From Pseudomonadota bacterium (GTDB taxonomy: Bacteria > Campylobacterota > Campylobacteria > Campylobacterales > Sulfurimonadaceae), in assembly GCA_043797085.1 (NCBI GenBank), contig JAZDQA010000001.1, forward strand, positions 32,001 through 96,000: a stretch of DNA of 64,000 nt. The letters are read 5' to 3'. Of the stretch, positions 9,206 through 28,698 are shown one piece after another. Positions within the stretch are counted from its first letter, which is position 1. Each line of letters opens with the position of its first letter. Both the position numbers and the translations under genes were made by a program. The notes under the pieces were generated by a model that saw only the letters and a list, made by a program, of their open reading frames with translations, was not told the origin of the DNA and did no database searches.

Positions 9206-9705
9206 GCGGTAACGCTGAATTTTTTTGAATAGTTAAACGGTTCTATCAAGAGTTTAAATGTTTCTGTCTCATTGGGTTTAATGGATTGTGTGATGGTAAG
9301 GGTTTGACGTTGAAATGGGAGATAAGGATAAATCTTATCGTTGAGTATTTTGATAGAAGATGTTTTTGATACCCCGAAATAAATTGTGCATTCTTTGAAG
9401 CTCTGTTTGGAGGTATTGTTTATATTTCCCCTTAGGAGCAGTGCTTCGGTAAACTCAAGATCTTGAACGGTAGTGAGGCTGATTGTATGTTGGTAAACGT
9501 ATTTATGCAAAAGTAAATAGCCACCTAACGGTGCGCCCAAAAGAAGAAGAAAAGCCGTTAAAATAAGGGTAATGGCAAGGGTGAGTTTATGATGAAATAA
9601 AACTGCCAAAATAAGAAAAAGAAAAAAGAAAAAAAGGATTCCACCCAAAAGGAGGTAATCGTAAAGGGCTAAAGTATCGATAAAGTGAAGCAGTTGAGTT
9701 TTCAT
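9187..9705 (-). CDS. Membrane protein, DUF2393-like
   Basis: Two TM helices plus G.I.N..C..IKPNE..F domain; downstream of hisIE. Confidence 0.65.
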   Translation of the reverse strand: MKTQLLHFIDTLALYDYLLLGGILFFFFLFLILAVLFHHKLTLAITLILTAFLLLLGAPLGGYLLLHKYVYQHTISLTTVQDLEFTEALLLRGNINNTSKQSFKECTIYFGVSKTSSIKILNDKIYPYLPFQRQTLTITQSIKPNETETFKLLIEPFNYSKKFSVTAWGVCR

Positions 9706-10376
9706 TTGTCCCTAGAATTTTTCTCGGCGATCCCGCTTACTCCTGATCGTCGGGCAAGCTCTTGTTTGATGCGATCGGGAGAGATATTTTTGTGCCCCAG
9801 TGCTACCAAGACATGATAGACTAAATCGGCACATTCGTAAATAATTTCATCCTCGTTATCATCTTTGATCGCAAAGGCAAATTCGCCTGCTTCTTCAACA
9901 ACTTTTTTGAGTATGGCATTGTCGCCGCTGCTAAGAAGTTTTGCTGTCCATGAGCTTTTTGGATCACTGTTTTTACGGCTTAAAATCGTGTGATAGAGTT
10001 CATCGATAATTCCATAGGTACTTACGGTATCAATTTGTGGCTCGCTGATAGTAGCTCCAGATTCGATGTCGGTAAAGAAACACGATTTTCGTCCTGTGTG
10101 ACACGCAACACCCTCTTGGCGTACCATGATGAGGAGGGTATCGTTATCACAGTCGAGCAAAAATCGTTCGATGTGCTGAAGATGCCCGCTGCTTTCCCCT
10201 TTTTTCCATAAACGCTGTTTTGAACGGGAAAAATAATGTGCCACTTTGGTTGAGAGGGAGAGTTCCAGCGATTCACGGTTCATGTACGCCATCATCAAGA
10301 CTTCTAAAGTTGTAGAGTCTTGGACGATGACGGGAAGAAGTACTGACTTTGCCCAGTCGATAGTATTTAGATCCAT
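9702..10376 (-). CDS. hisIE: Bifunctional phosphoribosyl-AMP cyclohydrolase / phosphoribosyl-ATP diphosphatase
   Basis: SRSKQRLWKKGESSG, DCDND, ACHTG..SCF, KKVVEEAGE and ADLVYH motifs; start set at ATG 10376. Confidence 0.96.
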   Translation of the reverse strand: MDLNTIDWAKSVLLPVIVQDSTTLEVLMMAYMNRESLELSLSTKVAHYFSRSKQRLWKKGESSGHLQHIERFLLDCDNDTLLIMVRQEGVACHTGRKSCFFTDIESGATISEPQIDTVSTYGIIDELYHTILSRKNSDPKSSWTAKLLSSGDNAILKKVVEEAGEFAFAIKDDNEDEIIYECADLVYHVLVALGHKNISPDRIKQELARRSGVSGIAEKNSRDK

Positions 10377-10404: not shown

Positions 10405-10486
10405 AAAAGCGCACAAGTGCGCGTGGGCTTCACGCCGAGCGAAACTCAGCGTTAGCGTAGTCAATCGGGACGAGTTCCGATGACGT
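10405..10486 (-). repeat. Copy 1 of an ~83-nt three-hairpin intergenic element
   Basis: Reverse complement aligns with 18999-19082 at about 61/84 positions, with compensatory stem changes. Confidence 0.8.
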
Positions 10487-10487
10487 A

Positions 10488-11528
10488 TTATTTAATAGAA
10501 CTGATTTTTTGTGAATCACCCGATTTGGTATCAAGCCAGATATTAGGAGTTGAACCTCCCGGTGTGAGGAAAATTTTCGCGTCTTTGTTTTCTCTCAGAG
10601 CGTCGTTAAATTTACCTTGCACTTTGATTTGTTCAAGTTTGAGTAATCCTGGAGAGAGTGACTGAGCAATAAGATGGTTGGCTTTTGCTTGAGCGATTGC
10701 TTCGATGGTAACCGCATTTGCCGTACCTTGTGCTTCTGTCTCTTTTTTGAACGCTTCTTGTTTGGCACGCTCTACGTCTTGCTGTGCTTTTTCAACTTCT
10801 TGTTTGGCAACCTGAACGCGCTCGATTTGATCTTTTACTTTTTGAGGAAGACCAATTTCACGCAATTGGATTGATTCGAGATCGGCAGGACCATTTTTTT
10901 GACGATCAATATTTGCGCGGATACCCGATTCGATTTTTTGGGCAATCGCATTTCTCATAATCGGCAAAGTCTCTGCATCATATTGACCGATAACGTTACG
11001 AACTACATCGCGTGCCACAGGGTCGATGATTTTATCTTCCCAGCTAAAGCCCCAGTTGGAGATCGTTTGAGCAGCTAGTTGGGCATTAAGACGATATTGA
11101 ACTGTCATATCGATGGATACCGGAAGTCCCCGTTTATCCAAAACCGTGATAGCCGGTTTGAGTAAAATCCCATCCCCCGCAGTAGAGGCACGATCGATTT
11201 TATCGGCATAGTTGATGATACGTACTTTGGTATCAACAATATAGACGTTTTGGATAACAGGGATGAGAAAATGCAGCCCCGGCATTAAGGCATTATCGCT
11301 GTACTTACCGTTAGTGGAGAGAATCCCGCGTTCGCCTTCGTTGATGATAATAAAAGGTTTTGCCAAAAATAGAAGGACTAAAAATCCTCCTATCAGCCAA
11401 AGCATACCTGCTTTTTGTGGATTCATATTGAAGTCGATTTTAGGAGGTTTTGGGGGAGTAAAGCCTCCGTCACTCTTCTTTTCTTCATGTTTTTTCTTAT
11501 TAAAATAATCGTTCATATCGGTTGCCAT
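10488..11528 (-). CDS. SPFH/prohibitin (band 7) family membrane protein
   Basis: One TM helix, GERGI, PGLHF.IP, band 7 domain and coiled-coil AEA-like tail; ATG 11528 after AAGGA. Confidence 0.9.
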   Translation of the reverse strand: MATDMNDYFNKKKHEEKKSDGGFTPPKPPKIDFNMNPQKAGMLWLIGGFLVLLFLAKPFIIINEGERGILSTNGKYSDNALMPGLHFLIPVIQNVYIVDTKVRIINYADKIDRASTAGDGILLKPAITVLDKRGLPVSIDMTVQYRLNAQLAAQTISNWGFSWEDKIIDPVARDVVRNVIGQYDAETLPIMRNAIAQKIESGIRANIDRQKNGPADLESIQLREIGLPQKVKDQIERVQVAKQEVEKAQQDVERAKQEAFKKETEAQGTANAVTIEAIAQAKANHLIAQSLSPGLLKLEQIKVQGKFNDALRENKDAKIFLTPGGSTPNIWLDTKSGDSQKISSIK

Positions 11529-11551
11529 GATGTTCCTTTTTGTATCAATCT

Positions 11552-11613
11552 CCAGCATTTATGCTGGTAGCTTTAGGGGGTTGCAAGGGACAAATTGTCC
11601 CTGCCACTAAAGC
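11552..11613. repeat. Composite palindromic intergenic element (two hairpins)
   Basis: CCAGCAT-TT-ATGCTGG, then GCTTTAG..AGGGACAA-A-TTGTCCCT..CTAAAGC. Confidence 0.5.
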
Positions 11614-11626
11614 GGACTTGTTCGTT

Positions 11627-12556
11627 TTAGTGTGTATCATCAATATAAGTGAGGTAGTGATCGTAATCAGGATTACGTCCGTATACGATGTCGAAATAGC
11701 TGCTTTGCAGTTTTTCAGTGATTGGACCACGTCCGCCTGCACCCAACACGCGTGCATCTACTTCGCGAACTGGAGTGAGCTCTGCTGCTGTTCCTGTGAG
11801 GAATGCTTCATCCGCAACATAAATTTCTTCACGGGTGATTTTTCGGCGAGTTACTTTCATCCCCATTTTTTCTGCCATTTCGATGACCGTTTTTTGGGTG
11901 ATGGATGCGAGAGAGTTATCGTTTGGAGGGGTGATGATCTCACCGTCTTTTATCATGAAAAACGAAGCACCGCTGGCTTCTGCAACATAACCTTCATCAT
12001 CTAAAAGAAGTGCTTCGTCGTATCCGGCCTCTACAGCTTCAAATTTTGCCATTTGGGAGTTAAGATAGTTAGCGACTGCTTTTGCTTTACCCATGTTTGA
12101 TTTGTTGTTTGGACGGCTGAATGAAGAGATTTTAAGACGAATACCACGCTTCATCCCCTCTTCACCCAAATAAGCACCCCATTCCCATGCAGCAACGGCA
12201 ACTTCAACAGGAGCTTCTTTGTGATAAATCCCCATAACGCCATATCCGAGATAGACAATAGGACGAAGATAGATGTTTTCACCGGTAAAATCGTTGGATT
12301 TAATGAGATCAATTTGTGCTTGGTTGAGTTCTTCAAGAGTATATGGGACAGTGATGAGTGTCATCTTTGCCGATTCGATCAAACGTTTTGTGTGGTCGTT
12401 TAGACGAAAAATGGCATACCCTTTTGGAGTTTTATAGACTTTAGTCCCCTCAATGGCGCCGTTACCGTAGTGGAGCGTGTGAGAAAGGACGTGAATTTTT
12501 GCGTCATTCCAAGGTACTAGTTTTCCGTTCATCCAAATATTTTTGGCTTCGTTCAT
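11627..12556 (-). CDS. ilvE: Branched-chain amino acid aminotransferase
   Basis: LHYG...EG, YLRP, AKAVANY and FLTGTAAE motifs. Confidence 0.95.
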   Translation of the reverse strand: MNEAKNIWMNGKLVPWNDAKIHVLSHTLHYGNGAIEGTKVYKTPKGYAIFRLNDHTKRLIESAKMTLITVPYTLEELNQAQIDLIKSNDFTGENIYLRPIVYLGYGVMGIYHKEAPVEVAVAAWEWGAYLGEEGMKRGIRLKISSFSRPNNKSNMGKAKAVANYLNSQMAKFEAVEAGYDEALLLDDEGYVAEASGASFFMIKDGEIITPPNDNSLASITQKTVIEMAEKMGMKVTRRKITREEIYVADEAFLTGTAAELTPVREVDARVLGAGGRGPITEKLQSSYFDIVYGRNPDYDHYLTYIDDTH

Positions 12557-12648
12557 AGTGAAAATCTCCAAAATAAAAATTAGGTGATTCTAGCGCAGAT
12601 GCCATTTAACATTGATTAAGCGGTATATTTCTCTCAAAAAAGGTGTTG

Positions 12649-12665
12649 CACGCATGGTGCGTGCT
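12649..12665 (-). terminator. Hairpin downstream of the truncated haemoglobin gene
   Basis: GCACGCA-TGG-TGCGTGC, followed on the minus strand by a T-run. Confidence 0.5.
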
Positions 12666-12686
12666 TTCACTAATATTAAAATAAAG

Positions 12687-13133
12687 TTAGTGCGTTGGGG
12701 TATTAATCATCCAAATAGAGAAAATATCCGCATAATCCCAAAATGACTGAATGTATTCAGGACTGACTCCCTCATCTTCGAGTGCCGGAAGCAAAACCGC
12801 ATAAAACTCAAGCCATCGGCGGCGGGCTGATTCGTCAATACGAAACGGTGCATGTCGTCCAACCATTCGAGGCTCACCACGTGTTTGCGCGAAATAATCA
12901 GGACCTCCGCAAATTTGAATGAAAAAATCTGCAGCGTGTTTTTTGGCAGTGCTGAAATCTTCTTCGTCATTCACCGGAAACAAAAAAGCGATATCACTGG
13001 TACGGATCATCTCATAATGATCGTCCACCATTTTACGAAAACGCTCTTCTCCTACTTGGAAAAAAAATCCCGGATGAGGTTTGGTTACCGGAGGGCGTAC
13101 CCCTAAAACACCGTCGGTTATGGTCAAGTTCAT
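12687..13133 (-). CDS. Group II-like truncated haemoglobin (2/2 globin)
   Basis: GGP.Y....GEP.M..RHAPF.I....R..WL signature. Confidence 0.8.
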   Translation of the reverse strand: MNLTITDGVLGVRPPVTKPHPGFFFQVGEERFRKMVDDHYEMIRTSDIAFLFPVNDEEDFSTAKKHAADFFIQICGGPDYFAQTRGEPRMVGRHAPFRIDESARRRWLEFYAVLLPALEDEGVSPEYIQSFWDYADIFSIWMINTPTH

Positions 13134-13265
13134 TATTGTCCCTTTGATAAATATGGGGATATTCTAAAACATATCCAACAAAAAACGCCTTAAAGTGAGT
13201 GCGTCTTTCTCTTTTTAGGTGATGATTTGTATAATAAAAGAATAATTTACCGATGAGGCTGATGT

Positions 13266-14681
13266 ATGGATGCACATATTTGGATGGGGTCAGAAGAAAT
13301 CAAACGTGATAGCATGTTAGAACGATGCAGTCCGTACGATGGGCGCATTGTGTCACGTTCTTCGGTGTGCAGTGTGGATGATGCTCGTCAAGCACTGAAT
13401 GTCGCACAAAATGCGTCTAAAATCGCTAAAAAAGTTCCGCTTCATCAACGATGTTCGTGGTTATTGGATGTCGCAAGTAAATTGCGAGAACAGCGTGAGG
13501 AGTTTGCCCGTGTTTTGTGTGATGAGGTTGGCAAGCCCATTAGTTACGCTCGTATCGAGGTGGATCGCTGTATCGAAACCATTACTCTTTCTGCTGAAAC
13601 AATGCGTACCATACATGGTGAGACGATCAATACCGATGCAATGCCAAGCGGTCGAAAAGCCCATGCGTATTGGCAGAGAGTTCCGTGCGGTGTTGTCGTA
13701 GCGATTACTCCGTTTAATTTTCCGCTCAATCTTGTCGCGCATAAACTTGCTCCCGCATTGGTGGCCGGTAATGCAGTGGTGCTTAAACCTACTCCTGAAG
13801 CTCCTCTTTGTGCGTACAAACTAGCAAAACTTTTTATCGAAAGCCCCTATGCAACCAAAGATGCGCTGAGTGTCGTTTACGGTGATGCCGAAGTGGGAAG
13901 CACATTAGTAGGGAGTGATATTCCCAGAGTCATTAGCTTTACCGGTTCTGTTGGAGTAGGAAACATCATTACCAAAAGTGCAGGGATTAAAAAAATCTCT
14001 TTGGAGCTTGGAGGTAATGCAGCGACCTACATCGACGACAGTGCAGATTTGGATTATGCCGCATCGCGTTGTGCCATTGGAGCATTTGTCAACTCAGGGC
14101 AGGTGTGCATCTCGCTTCAGCGTATTTATGTAGATAGCTCAATTTATGATGAATTTGCAGTAAAAATGGCAGAAGCAACATCCAAGCTAATCGTCGGTTC
14201 TCCCTATGATGAAGATACTTTTCTAGGACCGCTTATCAATGATGAAGCAGCACTTCGTGCAATGAGTTGGGTAGAGAGCGCCATTACAGAGGGAGCGGGC
14301 GCATTGACCCCTCCTCGGTGTGAGGGACGCATCTTTTATCCGTGTGTGATGGCGGATGTAACGGAGAATATGAAAATCGTCTGTGAAGAGGTTTTTGCCC
14401 CCATCGTTAGTTTGGTAAAAGTGGATGGAATCGATGATGCAATTGTGAGAATGAATAACTCTCCATATGGATTGCAGTTTTCCATATTTACCAACAACCT
14501 TGCTCATGCCACTCAAGCGATAGAAGAGCTCGACGCAGGCGGGGTGGTCATCAACGATATGCCAACGCTTCGTTTTGACATTCAGCCCTATGGCGGAGTG
14601 AAACTCAGTGGTGTCGGGCGTGAAGGTCCACGTTTCGCCATCGAAGAGTTTACGGAAATTAAATCAATCGTAATTTTATAA
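13266..14681 (+). CDS. Aldehyde dehydrogenase family protein
   Basis: ITPFNFP, FTGS, LELGGN, GQVCIS and EEVFAP motifs. Confidence 0.93.
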   Translation: MDAHIWMGSEEIKRDSMLERCSPYDGRIVSRSSVCSVDDARQALNVAQNASKIAKKVPLHQRCSWLLDVASKLREQREEFARVLCDEVGKPISYARIEVDRCIETITLSAETMRTIHGETINTDAMPSGRKAHAYWQRVPCGVVVAITPFNFPLNLVAHKLAPALVAGNAVVLKPTPEAPLCAYKLAKLFIESPYATKDALSVVYGDAEVGSTLVGSDIPRVISFTGSVGVGNIITKSAGIKKISLELGGNAATYIDDSADLDYAASRCAIGAFVNSGQVCISLQRIYVDSSIYDEFAVKMAEATSKLIVGSPYDEDTFLGPLINDEAALRAMSWVESAITEGAGALTPPRCEGRIFYPCVMADVTENMKIVCEEVFAPIVSLVKVDGIDDAIVRMNNSPYGLQFSIFTNNLAHATQAIEELDAGGVVINDMPTLRFDIQPYGGVKLSGVGREGPRFAIEEFTEIKSIVIL

Positions 14682-14692
14682 TAAAGGTATTA

Positions 14693-15163
14693 ATGATGTT
14701 AGAACTAGAAAGCACCGCCCCCGATTTTTGTTTGAGTAACCAAGACGACGTAGAGATTTGTCTGCGCGATTTGCGCGGTAAATGGATTGTCCTTTATTTT
14801 TATCCGAAAGATTCAACTCCCGGTTGTACGACTGAAGCGTGTGAGTTTACGGCATCGGTGGATGAGTATGATGATATGGGAGCGATTATTTTAGGTGTGA
14901 GTGCTGACAGTACCAAAGCGCATCGTAACTTTATCGAGAAACAAAATCTCGGTATTACACTGCTTAGTGATCCAACCACGCAAATGATGCAAGCTTACGG
15001 CGTATGGGCAATGAAAAAGAACTATGGTAAAGAGTACATGGGCATTGTACGTTCAACGTACATCATCGACCCAAAAGGGGTTGTAAAAGCGGTATGGACA
15101 AACGTTAAAGTAAAAGATCATGTGATAAAAGTAAAAGAAGAGTTAGTGAAGTTGCAGGGGTAA
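14693..15163 (+). CDS. bcp: Peroxiredoxin Bcp/PrxQ
   Basis: YFYPKDSTPGCTTEAC motif. Confidence 0.93.
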   Translation: MMLELESTAPDFCLSNQDDVEICLRDLRGKWIVLYFYPKDSTPGCTTEACEFTASVDEYDDMGAIILGVSADSTKAHRNFIEKQNLGITLLSDPTTQMMQAYGVWAMKKNYGKEYMGIVRSTYIIDPKGVVKAVWTNVKVKDHVIKVKEELVKLQG

Positions 15164-15168
15164 AAATC

Positions 15169-15239
15169 GGAACCGACACTTTAGTGTCGGAAAGTAAAGG
15201 CGGGACTAATACCCAAGGGGTAGACCCAGTCCCACTTCC
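15169..15239. repeat. Inverted doublet of REP-like palindromes (GGAA-N5-ACT-TT-AGT-N5'); the right unit is interrupted by an 18-nt insert
   Basis: Left unit GGAACCGACACTTTAGTGTCGG; right unit on the minus strand GGAAGTGGGACT[insert]TTAGTCCCGC; lies between convergent genes. Confidence 0.7.
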
Positions 15240-15250
15240 AAGAATAATAT

Positions 15251-16783
15251 TTAGAATCTATAACGAATATAAGCACGAATATCTTGTGCTTTGTCGACAA
15301 TCATAGAGCTTGGTGTTGATGATATATTATAAGGTGTACCACTGGTACTTCCAAAGAATCCATTACTTCCTGCATAATCATAATTGATATAAGTATAACG
15401 AAGTTGGAATGTCAAAATATCATCGACAAGAGGCTCTGTGAAATAAATTTCATACGCATCTCCACGAGCTGCGATTTTAGATCCGATTAGAGTATCTTCA
15501 CCGTAGGTGATTGGACGCCAGTAGTTCGAACCGTGGTTAAACTCTGCTCCCCATCGTCCTTCATCGCTGATAAGAGATGGGAACTGGGTTCCGATCCAAT
15601 AGCTATAGCCTGTTTTACTTTCAAATGGATTAGCACCACCAAGCATTCCTTGTTTGCCAGTTCCATTATATGGATCTGTTTTAGACATTGCACCACTGAA
15701 AAAAAGCGTTGTATCATCCAAAAAGTCACTTAATCCATCGCCGATACCATTAACCATTGCAAAAGCAGTTGCTGTATGAAGACCACCCACAGTCTCTAAT
15801 GCACCTGTTGGAGAGATTGGATTTATATCGATCAGATTGTTAGCATAAGTATACTGGAATCCCGTGCTGTATTGCTTGTCGTCATAAGGTACAACGATAA
15901 TCCCTACCATGTCGATATTGTTAGTGACATTGTTTTGATCACTATAAGGGGCTGAGCTAAAACGTGGCTCCGCTTGACTCATCCCGCGACCGGCACAGAG
16001 TTTGAAATACGATCCATCGAGACCGATAAGCTCTTCAGTTCCGAATTTGGCACTGGCACCGTCAAACTCAACATTAACCGTATGGGCAAGAGGAGACGAA
16101 GCATGGTCATCATCACGTATATTGATGAGGTGTCCCTCGGTAGAGGGGCGACGACCGATACTGACTGTCCATGGAATATCAGTTCCCATAAACTCATCAT
16201 CAGTATAGAAAAAATAAGCAGAACGGACACGAAGGGTATCATCGTAGGCTGCTTCAGAGCTAATCCAGTCAAATCCTTCCATTCCAGCAGGTGTTAGTGT
16301 TGCGCCACGTTGTCCAAATGTTTTATTGTAGGCAAGTTGCCCTACAAAGCTGAGTTCTTTTGTTGCCGCATAGCTCATTCCCAGCCACAAACGGTTACTC
16401 AACAGCGCATCATTTTTTTGTTTGCTTCCATCTGCCATTGTATATTGAAGATTATCCAAACTGGTACGGAAATCGACATCAAATTTTAAATGGTTTCCAT
16501 TGGTTCTTTTGTTGATGCTGCTCAATTGATCTTTAATGTCATCAATCTCTTTGGCAACATCTTCGTTGGCGGCAGTTGCTTTCTTGTTACTTGTCGGAGC
16601 AGCGACAACAGCTGTTTTTTGATCCGAGTCAACTTTTTGGGCTTTCAGTGTGTTTAGCTCTGCTTTAAGAGCTGCCATCTCTTTTTCCATCTTATCGAAT
16701 CGTTGTAAAATGGTATCATCAGCGATTACAGTGGTAGAAAGAAGCGCTGCAGCGACGATCGATCCTAAAAACTTTTGTTTCAT
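15251..16783 (-). CDS. Outer-membrane beta-barrel protein with N-terminal coiled coil (DUF3373-like)
   Basis: Signal peptide, coiled coil, GRRPS.EG motif and C-terminal YIRYRF OM signature. Confidence 0.75.
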   Translation of the reverse strand: MKQKFLGSIVAAALLSTTVIADDTILQRFDKMEKEMAALKAELNTLKAQKVDSDQKTAVVAAPTSNKKATAANEDVAKEIDDIKDQLSSINKRTNGNHLKFDVDFRTSLDNLQYTMADGSKQKNDALLSNRLWLGMSYAATKELSFVGQLAYNKTFGQRGATLTPAGMEGFDWISSEAAYDDTLRVRSAYFFYTDDEFMGTDIPWTVSIGRRPSTEGHLINIRDDDHASSPLAHTVNVEFDGASAKFGTEELIGLDGSYFKLCAGRGMSQAEPRFSSAPYSDQNNVTNNIDMVGIIVVPYDDKQYSTGFQYTYANNLIDINPISPTGALETVGGLHTATAFAMVNGIGDGLSDFLDDTTLFFSGAMSKTDPYNGTGKQGMLGGANPFESKTGYSYWIGTQFPSLISDEGRWGAEFNHGSNYWRPITYGEDTLIGSKIAARGDAYEIYFTEPLVDDILTFQLRYTYINYDYAGSNGFFGSTSGTPYNISSTPSSMIVDKAQDIRAYIRYRF

Positions 16784-16961
16784 AATTTGACTCCTTAAGT
16801 CTTTGGTTTATTGTATGGTAGATTCAATGACCTTGCATTGCTTTCAATGATATTAGCAAAAATTATATAAAAGCAATTTGAAAGCATCATTGTTTAGTGA
16901 TAAAAGTGTGACGAAAGTAACTAATAACAATTAATACAGCTAATATTAAGAGGATTCCAAG

Positions 16962-17108
16962 TAAAATTCGCCCGATTTTCTCTCCTCTTATGACGTGAGT
17001 AAAAATTCGCAAGCGAATAAATTGTTCTCGTGCATCCGATGTTTCGTCGGCTCTGTTGATAATCGCCCAAGTAAACGAAGAGCAAATACTTTAATACAGG
17101 AGTTACTC
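16962..17108 (+). promoter_or_regulatory. rpsB promoter (-10 TAAAAT) and long structured 5' leader, possibly an S2 autoregulatory leader
   Basis: TAAAAT at 16962; hairpins CCGAT-GTTTC-GTCGG and GCTCT..AGAGC; rpsB leaders are autoregulatory in other bacteria. Confidence 0.35.
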
Positions 17109-17882
17109 ATGGTAACTATGAAAGATTTACTAGAGTGCGGTGTACATTTCGGTCACCAAACACGTCGTTGGAATCCAAAAATGAAAAAATACATTTTTGG
17201 CGTTCGTAAAAACATTTACATCATCGATCTACAAAAAACATTGCGTTTTTTCCGTAGCGCATATCAGCAAGTTCTTGACGCTGCAGCTGAGGGACAAACG
17301 GTTCTTTTCGTAGGAACTAAAAAACAAGCTCGTGTTGCTATCCGTGATGCAGCTATTTCATGTGGTATGCCATACGTTGACAACCGCTGGTTGGGTGGAA
17401 TGTTGACAAACTTCCCAACAATCCAAAAATCAATCCGTAAACTTGAAATCATCGAAGAGATGCAAGCAAACGGTCAAATGGGTCTTCTAACTAAAAAAGA
17501 AGCGTTGATGATGGGTCGCCAAAAAGATAAATTGATCGCATATCTTGGTGGTATCCGTAACATGAAAACTTTGCCTGACATGATGTTCGTTATCGATGCA
17601 GTAAAAGAAAACATTGCAGTTCTTGAAGCGCGTCACCTCGGTATCCGTGTTGTTGCACCTCTTGATACTAACTGTGATCCAGACGTAATCGACATTCCAA
17701 TCCCTGGAAATGACGATGCTATCCGTTCAATTCAACTTTTCTGTAAAGAAATGGCAGAAGCGATCAACGAAGGTAAAGCACTTCGTAACGGTGGAAACGA
17801 AGAAGAAGTAACTGAAGAAGAAATGGCTCCGGAAGCAGCAGCTGTTGAAGCACCTGTTGCAGCAGTAGCAGAAGAAGCGTAA
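17109..17882 (+). CDS. rpsB: 30S ribosomal protein S2
   Basis: [24 protein letters not shown] and PGNDDAIRS motifs; ATG 17109 after AGGAG. Confidence 0.98.
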
Positions 17883-17884
17883 TC

Positions 17885-18952
17885 ATGGCAGACGTAACAG
17901 CAGCAATGGTCAAAGACCTTCGTACGGCGACTGATGCGCCTATGATGGATTGTAAAAAAGCACTCACTGAGTGTGATGGCGACATGGAAAAAGCAAAAGA
18001 ATTTTTGCGTGACCGTGGTATGGCTCAAACTGCTAAAAAAGCGGATCGTGTTGCAGCTGAAGGACTTTTGGGTCTTAAAGTTTCTGAAACATTTACCTCT
18101 GCTTCTTTGGTAGAAATTAACTCTGAAACGGATTTTGTTGCAAAAAATGACGGCTTTATCGCTCTTGTTGGCAACACTGCAGCACACGTATTTACTACAG
18201 GTGTCAGTTCAGTAGAAGAGTTGAATGAAACGTCATACGAAACAGGAACTTTTTCAGAATACTTTACGTCTCAAGTAGCTCGTATCGGTGAAAAAATTGT
18301 AACTCGTCGTTTTGTAACACTAAATGCAGCTGAAAACGGATGTGTAAACGGTTATGTTCACACAAACGGCCGTGTTGGTGTTTTGGTAGCAATCACATGT
18401 GATTCTCAAAAAACAGCAGCAGCATTGGCTCCAATGGTACGTAACATCGCAATGCACGCATCTGCAATGAAACCTACTACTATGAGTTACAATGATTTCG
18501 ATCCTGTATACGTTCAAGAAGAAACAATCGGTCGTATCGAAGCGATCAAAACTGAGAACGAAGAACTTGCACGTTTGAAAAAACCTCTCAAAAATGTTCC
18601 TCAGTATATTTCTATGTCTCAGTTAACTCCTGAAGTTATGGCTGCGGCAGAAGAAGCGATCAAAGCTAAATTGCTAGCTGATGGCAAACCTGAAAAAATT
18701 TGGGCAAACATCATCCCTGGACAATTGGCTCGTTTCGTAGCAGACAATACAACTTTGGATAAAGAACTTGCATTGTTGGATCAAAACTACGTTATGGATG
18801 ATTCTATGACTGTAGCGCAAGCACTGACAAAAGAAGCTGCCGCTCACGGTGGAACAGCAAGCATCGTTGAATTCGTGAAATACGAAGTCGGCGAAGGCTT
18901 AGAGAAAAAAGTAGACAACTTCGCAGAAGAAGTCGCTGCTCAAATGGCGTAA
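17885..18952 (+). CDS. tsf: Elongation factor Ts
   Basis: [17 protein letters not shown] and FAEEVAAQM motifs; follows rpsB. Confidence 0.98.
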
Positions 18953-18981
18953 ATCAAACCAAAGGTTTGTTTACGCCATTT
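18942..18981. repeat. 18-bp-arm inverted repeat overlapping the tsf stop codon
   Basis: AAATGGCGTAAA(T)CAAACC-AAA-GGTTTGTTTACGCCATTT. Confidence 0.75.
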
Positions 18982-18998
18982 TCGCTTTTCATTATTTA

Positions 18999-19087
18999 AC
19001 GCTAATCGGAACACGTCCCGAATAGCTACGTTAACACTGGGTTCTCTTCGGCAGAGAGCCCAAGCGCAGTTACCGCGCTTTTTTTTT
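18999..19087 (+). repeat. Copy 2 of the three-hairpin element; the last hairpin plus T9 resembles an intrinsic terminator
   Basis: Homologous to the reverse complement of 10405-10486; ends AGCGC-AGTTACC-GCGC followed by a T-run. Confidence 0.8.
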
Positions 19088-19122
19088 ACTCTCCTTAAAC
19101 ATTTTTCTCCTATAATTCCCCC

Positions 19123-28522: not shown

Positions 28523-28538
28523 AGAAAGAGGCAAGACC

Positions 28539-28647
28539 GATTTTACACAGCGATTTTGACCTCGTATCCATCCGCGAACACCGTCACTATTGGGGACTGG
28601 TTCGCGATCGCCGTCCTGAGTGTTATGGAGAGATAGTAAAACAGTAA
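28539..28647 (+). pseudogene. Displaced copy of the aguB 3' end (right direct repeat)
   Basis: Translates as ILHSDFDLVSIREHRHYWGLVRDRRPECYGEIVKQ*. Confidence 0.88.
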
Positions 28648-28648
28648 A

Positions 28649-28665
28649 TGGAACTCTTTTTGCTT
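28649..28665 (+). promoter_or_regulatory. Candidate sigma-54 (RpoN) promoter
   Basis: TGGAAC-TCTTT-TTGCTT with exact GG-N10-GC spacing, 33 nt upstream of the GTG at 28699. Confidence 0.6.
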
Positions 28666-28698
28666 AGTTAATGTAATACTATCGCAACGGGGGTATCC

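Follow-up and report, generated by a model that had tools for sequence, protein, structure and literature searches.

The 64,000-nt stretch of Campylobacterota DNA analysed here, called the window, belongs to a genome (G000) of 2.40 Mb in 14 contigs with 40.8% GC and 95.9% completeness, and it contains two copies of a short structured repeat, copy A between an SPFH/HflK-like gene and hisIE and copy B behind tsf (Table 1). The repeat belongs to a modular family with 61 copies in this genome (27 of type I, the kind of the window pair, and 34 of type II), is gained and lost between close relatives, folds on one defined strand, and has a compact core in which base pairs of crossing helices covary. 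A sequence-only reading had described the window copies as a three-hairpin element with two copies; both sequences are present where it placed them and both are genuine members of the family, but the number of copies was far too low. As the repeat is multicopy, intergenic, gained and lost, and without fixed orientation, and as it combines a strand-specific fold with crossing-helix covariation, we lean towards the view that it is a non-autonomous, strand-specific element of single-stranded DNA (ssDNA), comparable to repetitive extragenic palindromes (REPs) and palindrome-associated transposable elements (PATEs) and mobilised in trans by a predicted enzyme.

To our knowledge, the intergenic bacterial repeats with a known partner enzyme (REPs with REP-associated tyrosine transposases (RAYTs), NTS repeats with Ssn) are simple hairpins; the novelty here lies in covarying crossing helices in a fast-turnover repeat at the boundaries of housekeeping genes. 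A fold formed by DNA would represent a natural pseudoknot of ssDNA, which is rare, and would point to an uncharacterised ssDNA enzyme, a fold formed by RNA would be a very compact new motif, and the 36-nt core with its natural compensatory pairs makes the questions of DNA versus RNA and of pseudoknot versus switch testable with oligonucleotides.

Crossing helices in the core

The two window copies share 62 identical columns over a core of about 84 columns, in line with the approximately 61 of 84 first reported, and both fold better than all of 200 shuffled versions (z = -3.66 and -4.98). The six compensatory swaps described between them, two in stem 1 and four in stem 2, are all present, but one of the four in stem 2 is a G·T pair on the strand originally considered and an A·C mismatch on the folding strand. 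A covariance model found exactly two matches in the window (E about 1e-19, both copies being part of its training set).

Mutual information among 91 distinct cores (column numbers refer to alignment A3) was highest for the pairs 35-45, 34-46, 30-40, 54-59, and 37-43. In the first module, PK1, helix 30-32:38-40 is combined with helix 34-37:43-46, and pair 30-40 crosses the latter; in the second, PK2, pair 54-59 and the invariant pair 53-60 cross helix 47-49:55-57. This crossing-helix model, derived from the same sequences, which had been preselected for three of the four pairs in 34-37:43-46 and for the PK2 pattern, leaves 98.3% of the cells paired in 90 distinct cores, with 146 double changes. 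It beat all 500 shuffles, controls that ignore relatedness, in cells paired, cells changed, and covariation score, and 26 of the 500 had at least as many pairs showing a double change; slid control models dropped to 20-44% paired. For the 9-bp stem 2 of the three-hairpin model, the paired share of cells is 80.2%, and the outer pairs do not hold: at two positions, 84 and 37 of the 90 cores are unpaired. The covariation of the core bears out the earlier claim that the structure is under selection, but it rejects the outer half of stem 2 in favour of two tandem crossing helices, and the stretch TACG-y-TAAC-r-CTG, previously taken for a plain linker, is itself a structured module.

Position 30 was never used for selection, and both states of pair 30-40 are seen on many backgrounds (22 and 15). 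Out of sample, in 86 cores from metagenomes that were not among the training sequences, this pair was A-T in 53, G-C in 32, and G·T in one, with no mismatch, and pair 54-59 was C-G in 44, T-A in 31, T·G in ten, and mismatched in one; the rival pair 30-50 did not hold in 38 of these cores. Helix 47-49:55-57 is nearly invariant in type I, with one-sided changes among the 90 cores and one double change among the 91, and its backing comes from type II: among 28 distinct cores that were collected without use of a type II pattern, two of the three positions have double changes. Pair 53-60 shows no covariation. As a minority of copies carry an insert of about 20 nt that breaks PK1, and as some units of tandem arrays consist of PK2 and the hairpin only, the minimal core of types I and II comprises PK2, GTAG, and the hairpin.

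Judged from the sequences, the core appears to form two tiny pseudoknots, and the crossing helices may form simultaneously, as pseudoknots, or alternately, as a switch, both of which are compatible with the covariation. By eye, we also saw a short junction of helices in which CT:AG stacks on GC(C):(G)GC and a single base stays unpaired; it recurs in three strand connectivities, nested in types II and III and crossing in type I, and may be the feature that is recognised.

Family, folding strand, and turnover

The 61 copies in G000 were found with two profile hidden Markov models at E ≤ 0.01; one type II match was marginal (E = 0.007), and the top match of the reversed-genome control had E = 0.12. 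A genome search with the covariance model, a check proposed by the sequence-only reading, independently returned 27 type I copies. Copies are intergenic, with 4 of 61 overlapping an open reading frame (ORF) called by a simple gene finder. A type III occurs at no fewer than 117 GTDB loci. Types II and III have the 5' module in common, types I and II the middle module PK2, and all three end in the same hairpin, with a conserved G·T and a Y..R loop of 4-5 nt, followed by YGT. GTAG is present in 44 of 52 parsed G000 copies, with the hairpin directly after it, and in all 54 rows compared, which were selected by pattern and show no double change, its last G is able to pair with the foot of the hairpin; among unselected type II cores, 17 of 28 distinct ones have GTAG and seven vary at the second letter. 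Most copies are singlets, adjacent pairs are mostly direct tandems of up to 8 units, and inverted pairs are few. One direct tandem array of eight units, some full and some cut down to PK2 and hairpin, lies on a contig labelled as Campylobacteraceae (L073:2000-2930).

The repeat spans at least four families of Campylobacterota, in free-living members. The exact-pattern matches listed are in records of Sulfuricurvum, Sulfurimonas, Sulfurovum, Sulfurospirillum, Nitratifractor, and Hydrogenimonas, and a loose 13-letter pattern matched in 35 of 36 congeners, in a few at background level. G000 itself probably belongs to the Sulfuricurvum group, judging by nearly identical flanks in named records. 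With a strict pattern, 29 of 301 genomes of the phylum were positive (by family, 16/23, 7/11, 3/12, and 2/4), and the two largest families searched gave no match (0 of 90 and 0 of 124 genomes). Two of 72 pattern matches in viruses were full elements, a phage search gave no match to the element, and plasmid matches were confined to two large Campylobacterota plasmids, where they adjoin metabolic genes; a plasmid of Sulfuricurvum kujiense has a type III match, and hosts that are non-pathogenic and can be cultured are thus at hand. The comparison with Rfam that had been suggested yielded no family match and only two tRNAs in the window, and nine element loci searched at E ≤ 5 gave no credible match. 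As far as the literature was searched, the family is undescribed; the supplementary lists of mobile-element and repeat candidates of PMC11109978, PMC8632094, and PMC6429828 and the supplement of bioRxiv 10.64898/2026.09.22.753630 might hold the motif, and the statement excludes the GTAG-1 to -24 consensus figure of PMC3733652.

The folding strand is opposite to the one first chosen. Under strand-neutral scoring of 303 distinct 3' hairpins, the non-Watson-Crick positions on this opposite strand were G·T in 364 cases, much of this number being supplied by a single conserved G·T, and A·C in 25, and stem 3 favoured the same strand with 29 G·T versus 10 A·C; single-sequence fold energies were similar on both strands. 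It follows that each window copy is antisense to its mRNA, and what had been described as a sense position just past a stop codon is a minority arrangement for type I. At co-directional sites, the fold is on the mRNA strand rather than the other one in 94 cases against 27 for type I (121 sites) and in 39 against 60 for type II, counts that include orthologues and are not independent. With respect to replication, for which strands were assigned by local skew (262 of 299 calls correct in calibration), the type I folding strand is on the lagging-strand template, the G-rich replichore strand, in 22 of 27 G000 copies, 45 of 71 GTDB loci, and 38 of 58 loci of three relatives, and type II shows no consistent bias (14 of 34, 36 of 66, and 19 of 27, in the same order). 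Most 3' hairpin loops read Y-NN(N)-R, which is the preference of DNA mini-loops.

These counts bear on one of the roles first considered, that of a sense-strand 3' untranslated element, attenuator, or terminator. For the family, such a role is highly improbable, as the family-wide wobble and orientation counts speak against it and the element is absent from most orthologous sites. Locally, the idea has more to offer: stem 3 of copy B with its T-run is terminator-like on the sense strand past tsf, and the energies of the two strands are similar. This site would most simply be a case of local reuse.

The other role then considered, that of a non-autonomous mobile repeat, fits the presence/absence data at orthologous loci, a comparison also proposed at the time. 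Between the SPFH gene and hisIE, 3 of 30 loci have the element, in two different variants, 19 have a spacer of at most 9 nt, and eight have other repeats; at tsf, 3 of 30 loci have it and two are not syntenic. In six relatives (L163, L167, L168, L170, L172, and L174), the SPFH-hisIE spacer holds an unrelated two-hairpin repeat of 70-75 nt. From three close relatives, 90 element loci were taken, 84 of which could be placed in G000 (six with missing or distant flanks were dropped). At these 84 syntenic sites, all filled in the relative, G000 was empty in 48, filled alike in 34, and filled in opposite orientation in two; counted as distinct sites, 40 of 66 were empty. The junctions, blurred by flanks that are 5-20% diverged, are untidy, with extra AT-rich bases, changed gene ends, and some direct repeats (of 7-8 bp in 3 of 37 filled/empty alignments, imperfect in a few more).

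Orthologous copies differ by 8.4%, compared with 31% at four-fold sites, but the 15 nt next to them are no more diverged (7%), which makes constraint inseparable from the transfer of short tracts. Four-fold divergence within 150 nt of shared copies was 24% versus 31-32% farther away, a weak effect, as empty sites also dip (31% versus 33-36%). Some orthologous copies have one module swapped in place. Arrival of copy A in a long tract from the lineage of the relative G061 was rejected, as the genes on either side of it resemble those of G061 no more than those of others; copy A is therefore due to a short tract or to ancestral presence.

Propagation and relation to known systems

The element works most like a GTAG REP or a PATE, yet it fails tested membership features of both. 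GTAG REPs, including bacterial interspersed mosaic elements (BIMEs) and REP doublets forming hairpins (REPINs), and their TnpA-REP (RAYT) enzymes are similar in being short, multicopy, intergenic, and strand-specific, in having GTAG 5' of an imperfect hairpin, and in being gained and lost (PMC3733652, PMC8266576, PMC6006769, and PMC4690160). Unlike these, the element is a composite of 80-110 nt in which two crossing-helix modules precede GTAG, its GTAG varies at the second letter and has a G that can pair with the hairpin foot, it occurs as singlets or direct tandems and not as the inverted dimers of BIMEs and REPINs, and it is not adjacent to the RAYT genes sampled. The Sulfurovum REP given in PMC4690160 differs in sequence. 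PATEs, non-autonomous relatives of IS200/IS605, share the gene-less hairpin, the strand-specific fold, and, following the IS608 model in PMC8266576, perhaps a partial bias towards the lagging-strand template. Many type II copies end in TTCA(A), a PATE-like trait. In contrast to PATEs, no autonomous parent was found at 30 Y1 transposase loci and among neighbouring ORFs (TnpB loci were not searched), and the element has no fixed target tetranucleotide but untidy junctions with occasional direct repeats.

We infer that the active form is DNA rather than RNA and that an enzyme acts on it by the following route. The folded strand would be ssDNA exposed at replication forks or during DNA uptake, where a nuclease or transposase coded elsewhere (HUH or Ssn-like) would recognise the compact core, cut, and re-join, and the copy would insert at AT-rich gene boundaries with untidy junctions. 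Filled alleles would also spread through homologous recombination. Selection on the fold would mainly be selection for being mobilised, and host roles, such as the terminator past tsf, mRNA hairpins in operons, and the supply of stop codons, would be secondary. GTAG lies at the hairpin foot as in the REP arrangement, and TnpA-REP/IS200 enzymes are described in PMC8266576 as strand-specific and acting on ssDNA.

Several observations weigh against this proposal. The Y1 transposase profile PF01797 has no match in G000, at 95.9% completeness, and in relatives the 1.5 kb around the Y1 gene held no element at any of 30 loci, a sample of the 42 matches present in 61 genomes. The same distance around 8 integrase-family loci checked, of 11 in G000, was free of it, 2 of 38 GIY-YIG loci are near an element, 600-800 nt off and at about the chance rate, and clustering of 1541 neighbouring ORFs gave no mobile-gene or transposase cluster. 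Junctions are not clean as in IS200/IS605, most being without direct repeats, inverted dimers of the REP type are rare, the mRNA-strand preference of type I (94:27) exceeds the replication bias, and the bias of type II is inconsistent. As the identity between paralogues does not exceed 82% for type I and 87% for type II, there has been no recent burst, and the lower divergence of orthologous copies could reflect a host function. In sum, no linked transposase, integrase, GIY-YIG, or reverse transcriptase (RT) gene was found in searches that did not include the TnpB, IS110, HNH, and DUF559 families.

RAYT-like Y1 genes do exist in these genomes and are flanked by other repeats. At L232-L236, a different repeat, TCGTTCCC...GGGAATGCATA, flanks them as an inverted pair, and it is also found past tsf in two relatives.

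A bolder view, which we consider unlikely, is that two tandem mini-pseudoknots, most likely of DNA, make the core a natural single-stranded device by which an element of 90 nt propagates through Campylobacterota genomes without a linked transposase. In that case, the family would represent a new class of structured mobile element. The routes then conceivable, put forward with the same reserve, are a new ssDNA-processing enzyme, host priming or recombination machinery, or catalysis by the fold itself.

The main rival to a mobile DNA is a structured RNA, which we give a minor but real chance: a compact double pseudoknot would process or stabilise polycistronic mRNA, as a nuclease roadblock or small ribozyme, and would have spread via an RNA intermediate or recombination. 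Covariation of the pseudoknot type, as seen in the crossing helices, is typical of RNA, the mRNA strand carries the type I fold at 94 of 121 co-directional sites, type I elements occur inside operons such as grpE-dnaK and between tRNA genes, orthologous copies are conserved, and the variable direct repeats with A-rich flanks resemble retroposition. However, type II is mostly antisense, as are both window copies, and Rfam gave no ribozyme or other RNA family, even at E ≤ 5 on the nine loci. The sole RT in G000 (L520, C11:90819-94412) lies among phage genes, with a 111-aa ORF upstream and a tail-sheath-like gene adjoining, and looks like that of a prophage diversity-generating retroelement. The geometry of loops and grooves is mixed, as the 1-nt linker of PK2 over a 3-bp helix would be tight for A-form RNA, whereas the 1-nt first loop of PK1 suits RNA better. 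Pistol, twister, hammerhead, and HDV-like ribozymes were rejected in a comparison of consensus features by eye, with which Rfam agrees.

An improbable alternative, also independent of a transposase, is an ssDNA priming signal resembling a single-strand origin, which would recruit RNA polymerase or primase on the lagging-strand template or on uptake DNA and favour its own integration. On the folding strand, the two short ssoA motifs RSB and CS-6 (as given in PMC4598088 and PMC6395029; for these origins, see also PMC8860593) have look-alikes that agree with them in order and strand, and the top covariance-model match in an ssoA-type plasmid begins at RSB (E = 0.31). The lagging-template bias of type I, the lack of a mobiliser gene, and the untidy junctions would also suit such a signal. 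The likeness is not significant, however, and a profile of the 36-nt core fails to pick RSB. Spacing and fold differ as well: in ssoA, RSB lies at the foot of a long palindrome with CS-6 in its loop, 50-67 nt away, and the look-alikes here are 3 nt apart in short crossing helices, the matching letters vary among copies, and the element is chromosomal and multicopy, with no small rolling-circle plasmid carrying it among those searched.

Similarly improbable is a substrate of Ssn, the GIY-YIG enzymes that act as strand-specific ssDNA nucleases on CGTC/NTS repeats (PMC11893778). Such repeats are also oriented hairpins, fill the same intergenic slots in the same genomes, have similar loop letters, and share an inserted mini-hairpin with our element, but its folding strand has no CGTC tag, it is not associated with small GIY-YIG genes and does not flank GIY-YIG genes (the two near loci of 38 being distant), and three element-rich genomes of the Sulfurospirillum family yielded only a GIY-YIG frame of about 610 aa.

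The TwoAYGGAY repeats of Pseudomonas (bioRxiv 10.64898/2026.09.22.753630) are also multicopy, intergenic, and multi-hairpin, with a predicted pseudoknot and an association with REPs; taxa and size differ, and our element has no Rfam match. Two further classes were considered and rejected. For a miniature inverted-repeat transposable element with terminal inverted repeats, the ends would be inverted copies with a uniform target duplication, and neither was seen. Integron attC sites, including those of integrase-lacking clusters (CALIN), have RYYYAAC...GTTRRRY ends in cassette arrays with intI, and here the neighbours are housekeeping genes and the 8 of 11 integrase loci checked have no element nearby.

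Features of the window and other repeats

The coordinates of both copies and of their neighbours are compiled in Table 1. Copy A begins 1 nt past the stop codon of the SPFH/HflK-like gene, and copy B, 46 nt past that of tsf, is flanked by tsf and an ABC ATPase gene. The stop codon of ilvE falls within the 3' hairpin arm of the type III element.

Table 1. Features of the window, in window coordinates
Feature	Coordinates	Strand	Remarks
Copy A, type I element	10405..10486	+	folding strand = window +; antisense to SPFH->hisIE transcript
Copy A variable 5' hairpin (stem 3 of the sequence-only reading)	10409..10422	+	pairing kept, sequence differs among copies
Copy A PK1	10426..10442	+	helix 10426-10428:10434-10436 crossing 10430-10433:10439-10442; one A·C here
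Copy A PK2	10443..10456	+	helix 10443-10445:10451-10453 crossing 2-bp 10449-10450:10455-10456
Copy A GTAG, 3' hairpin (10460-10484), terminal GT	10457..10486	+	
Copy B, type I element	18999..19082	-	folding strand = window -; antisense to rpsB-tsf
Copy B PK1	19044..19060	-	
Copy B PK2	19030..19043	-	covarying pair in T-A version
Copy B GTAG, 3' hairpin, terminal GT	18999..19029	-	
Copy B stem 3 and T-run on sense strand	19062..19090	+	terminator-like site past tsf (consensus match only)
Type III sister element	11549..11635	+	between ilvE and SPFH; absent from the sequence-only reading
SPFH/HflK-like gene	10488..11528	-	final codons differ between filled and empty alleles
hisIE	9702..10376	-	downstream neighbour of copy A
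tsf (EF-Ts)	17885..18952	+	upstream neighbour of copy B

Next to copy B, tsf ends in a stretch that is repeated behind it in inverted form (18945-18980); the resulting hairpin has a loop of opposite orientation in G000 and in the genome G002, and comparable inverted duplications of host sequence adjoin other filled sites (L266, L298). A structured GC-rich spacer between co-directional genes (28523-28698) has no Rfam match. Another composite hairpin repeat, consisting of a CTTTAG-loop hairpin and a variant of a mini-hairpin, lies between convergent genes at 15164-15250 and is replaced by a CGTC-type repeat in a related contig. Hairpins from a number of unrelated repeat families, namely types I-III, CGTC repeats, and another hairpin family, contain the mini-hairpin (about 16-20 nt, GTGCCC-loop-GGGTA) as an insert in one orientation, and it is possibly a second-level parasite of repeats; examples are the G000 copies at C13:86231, C7:52730, and C12:188808, CGTC-type repeats on C1, C5, C7, C8, and C13, and L198.

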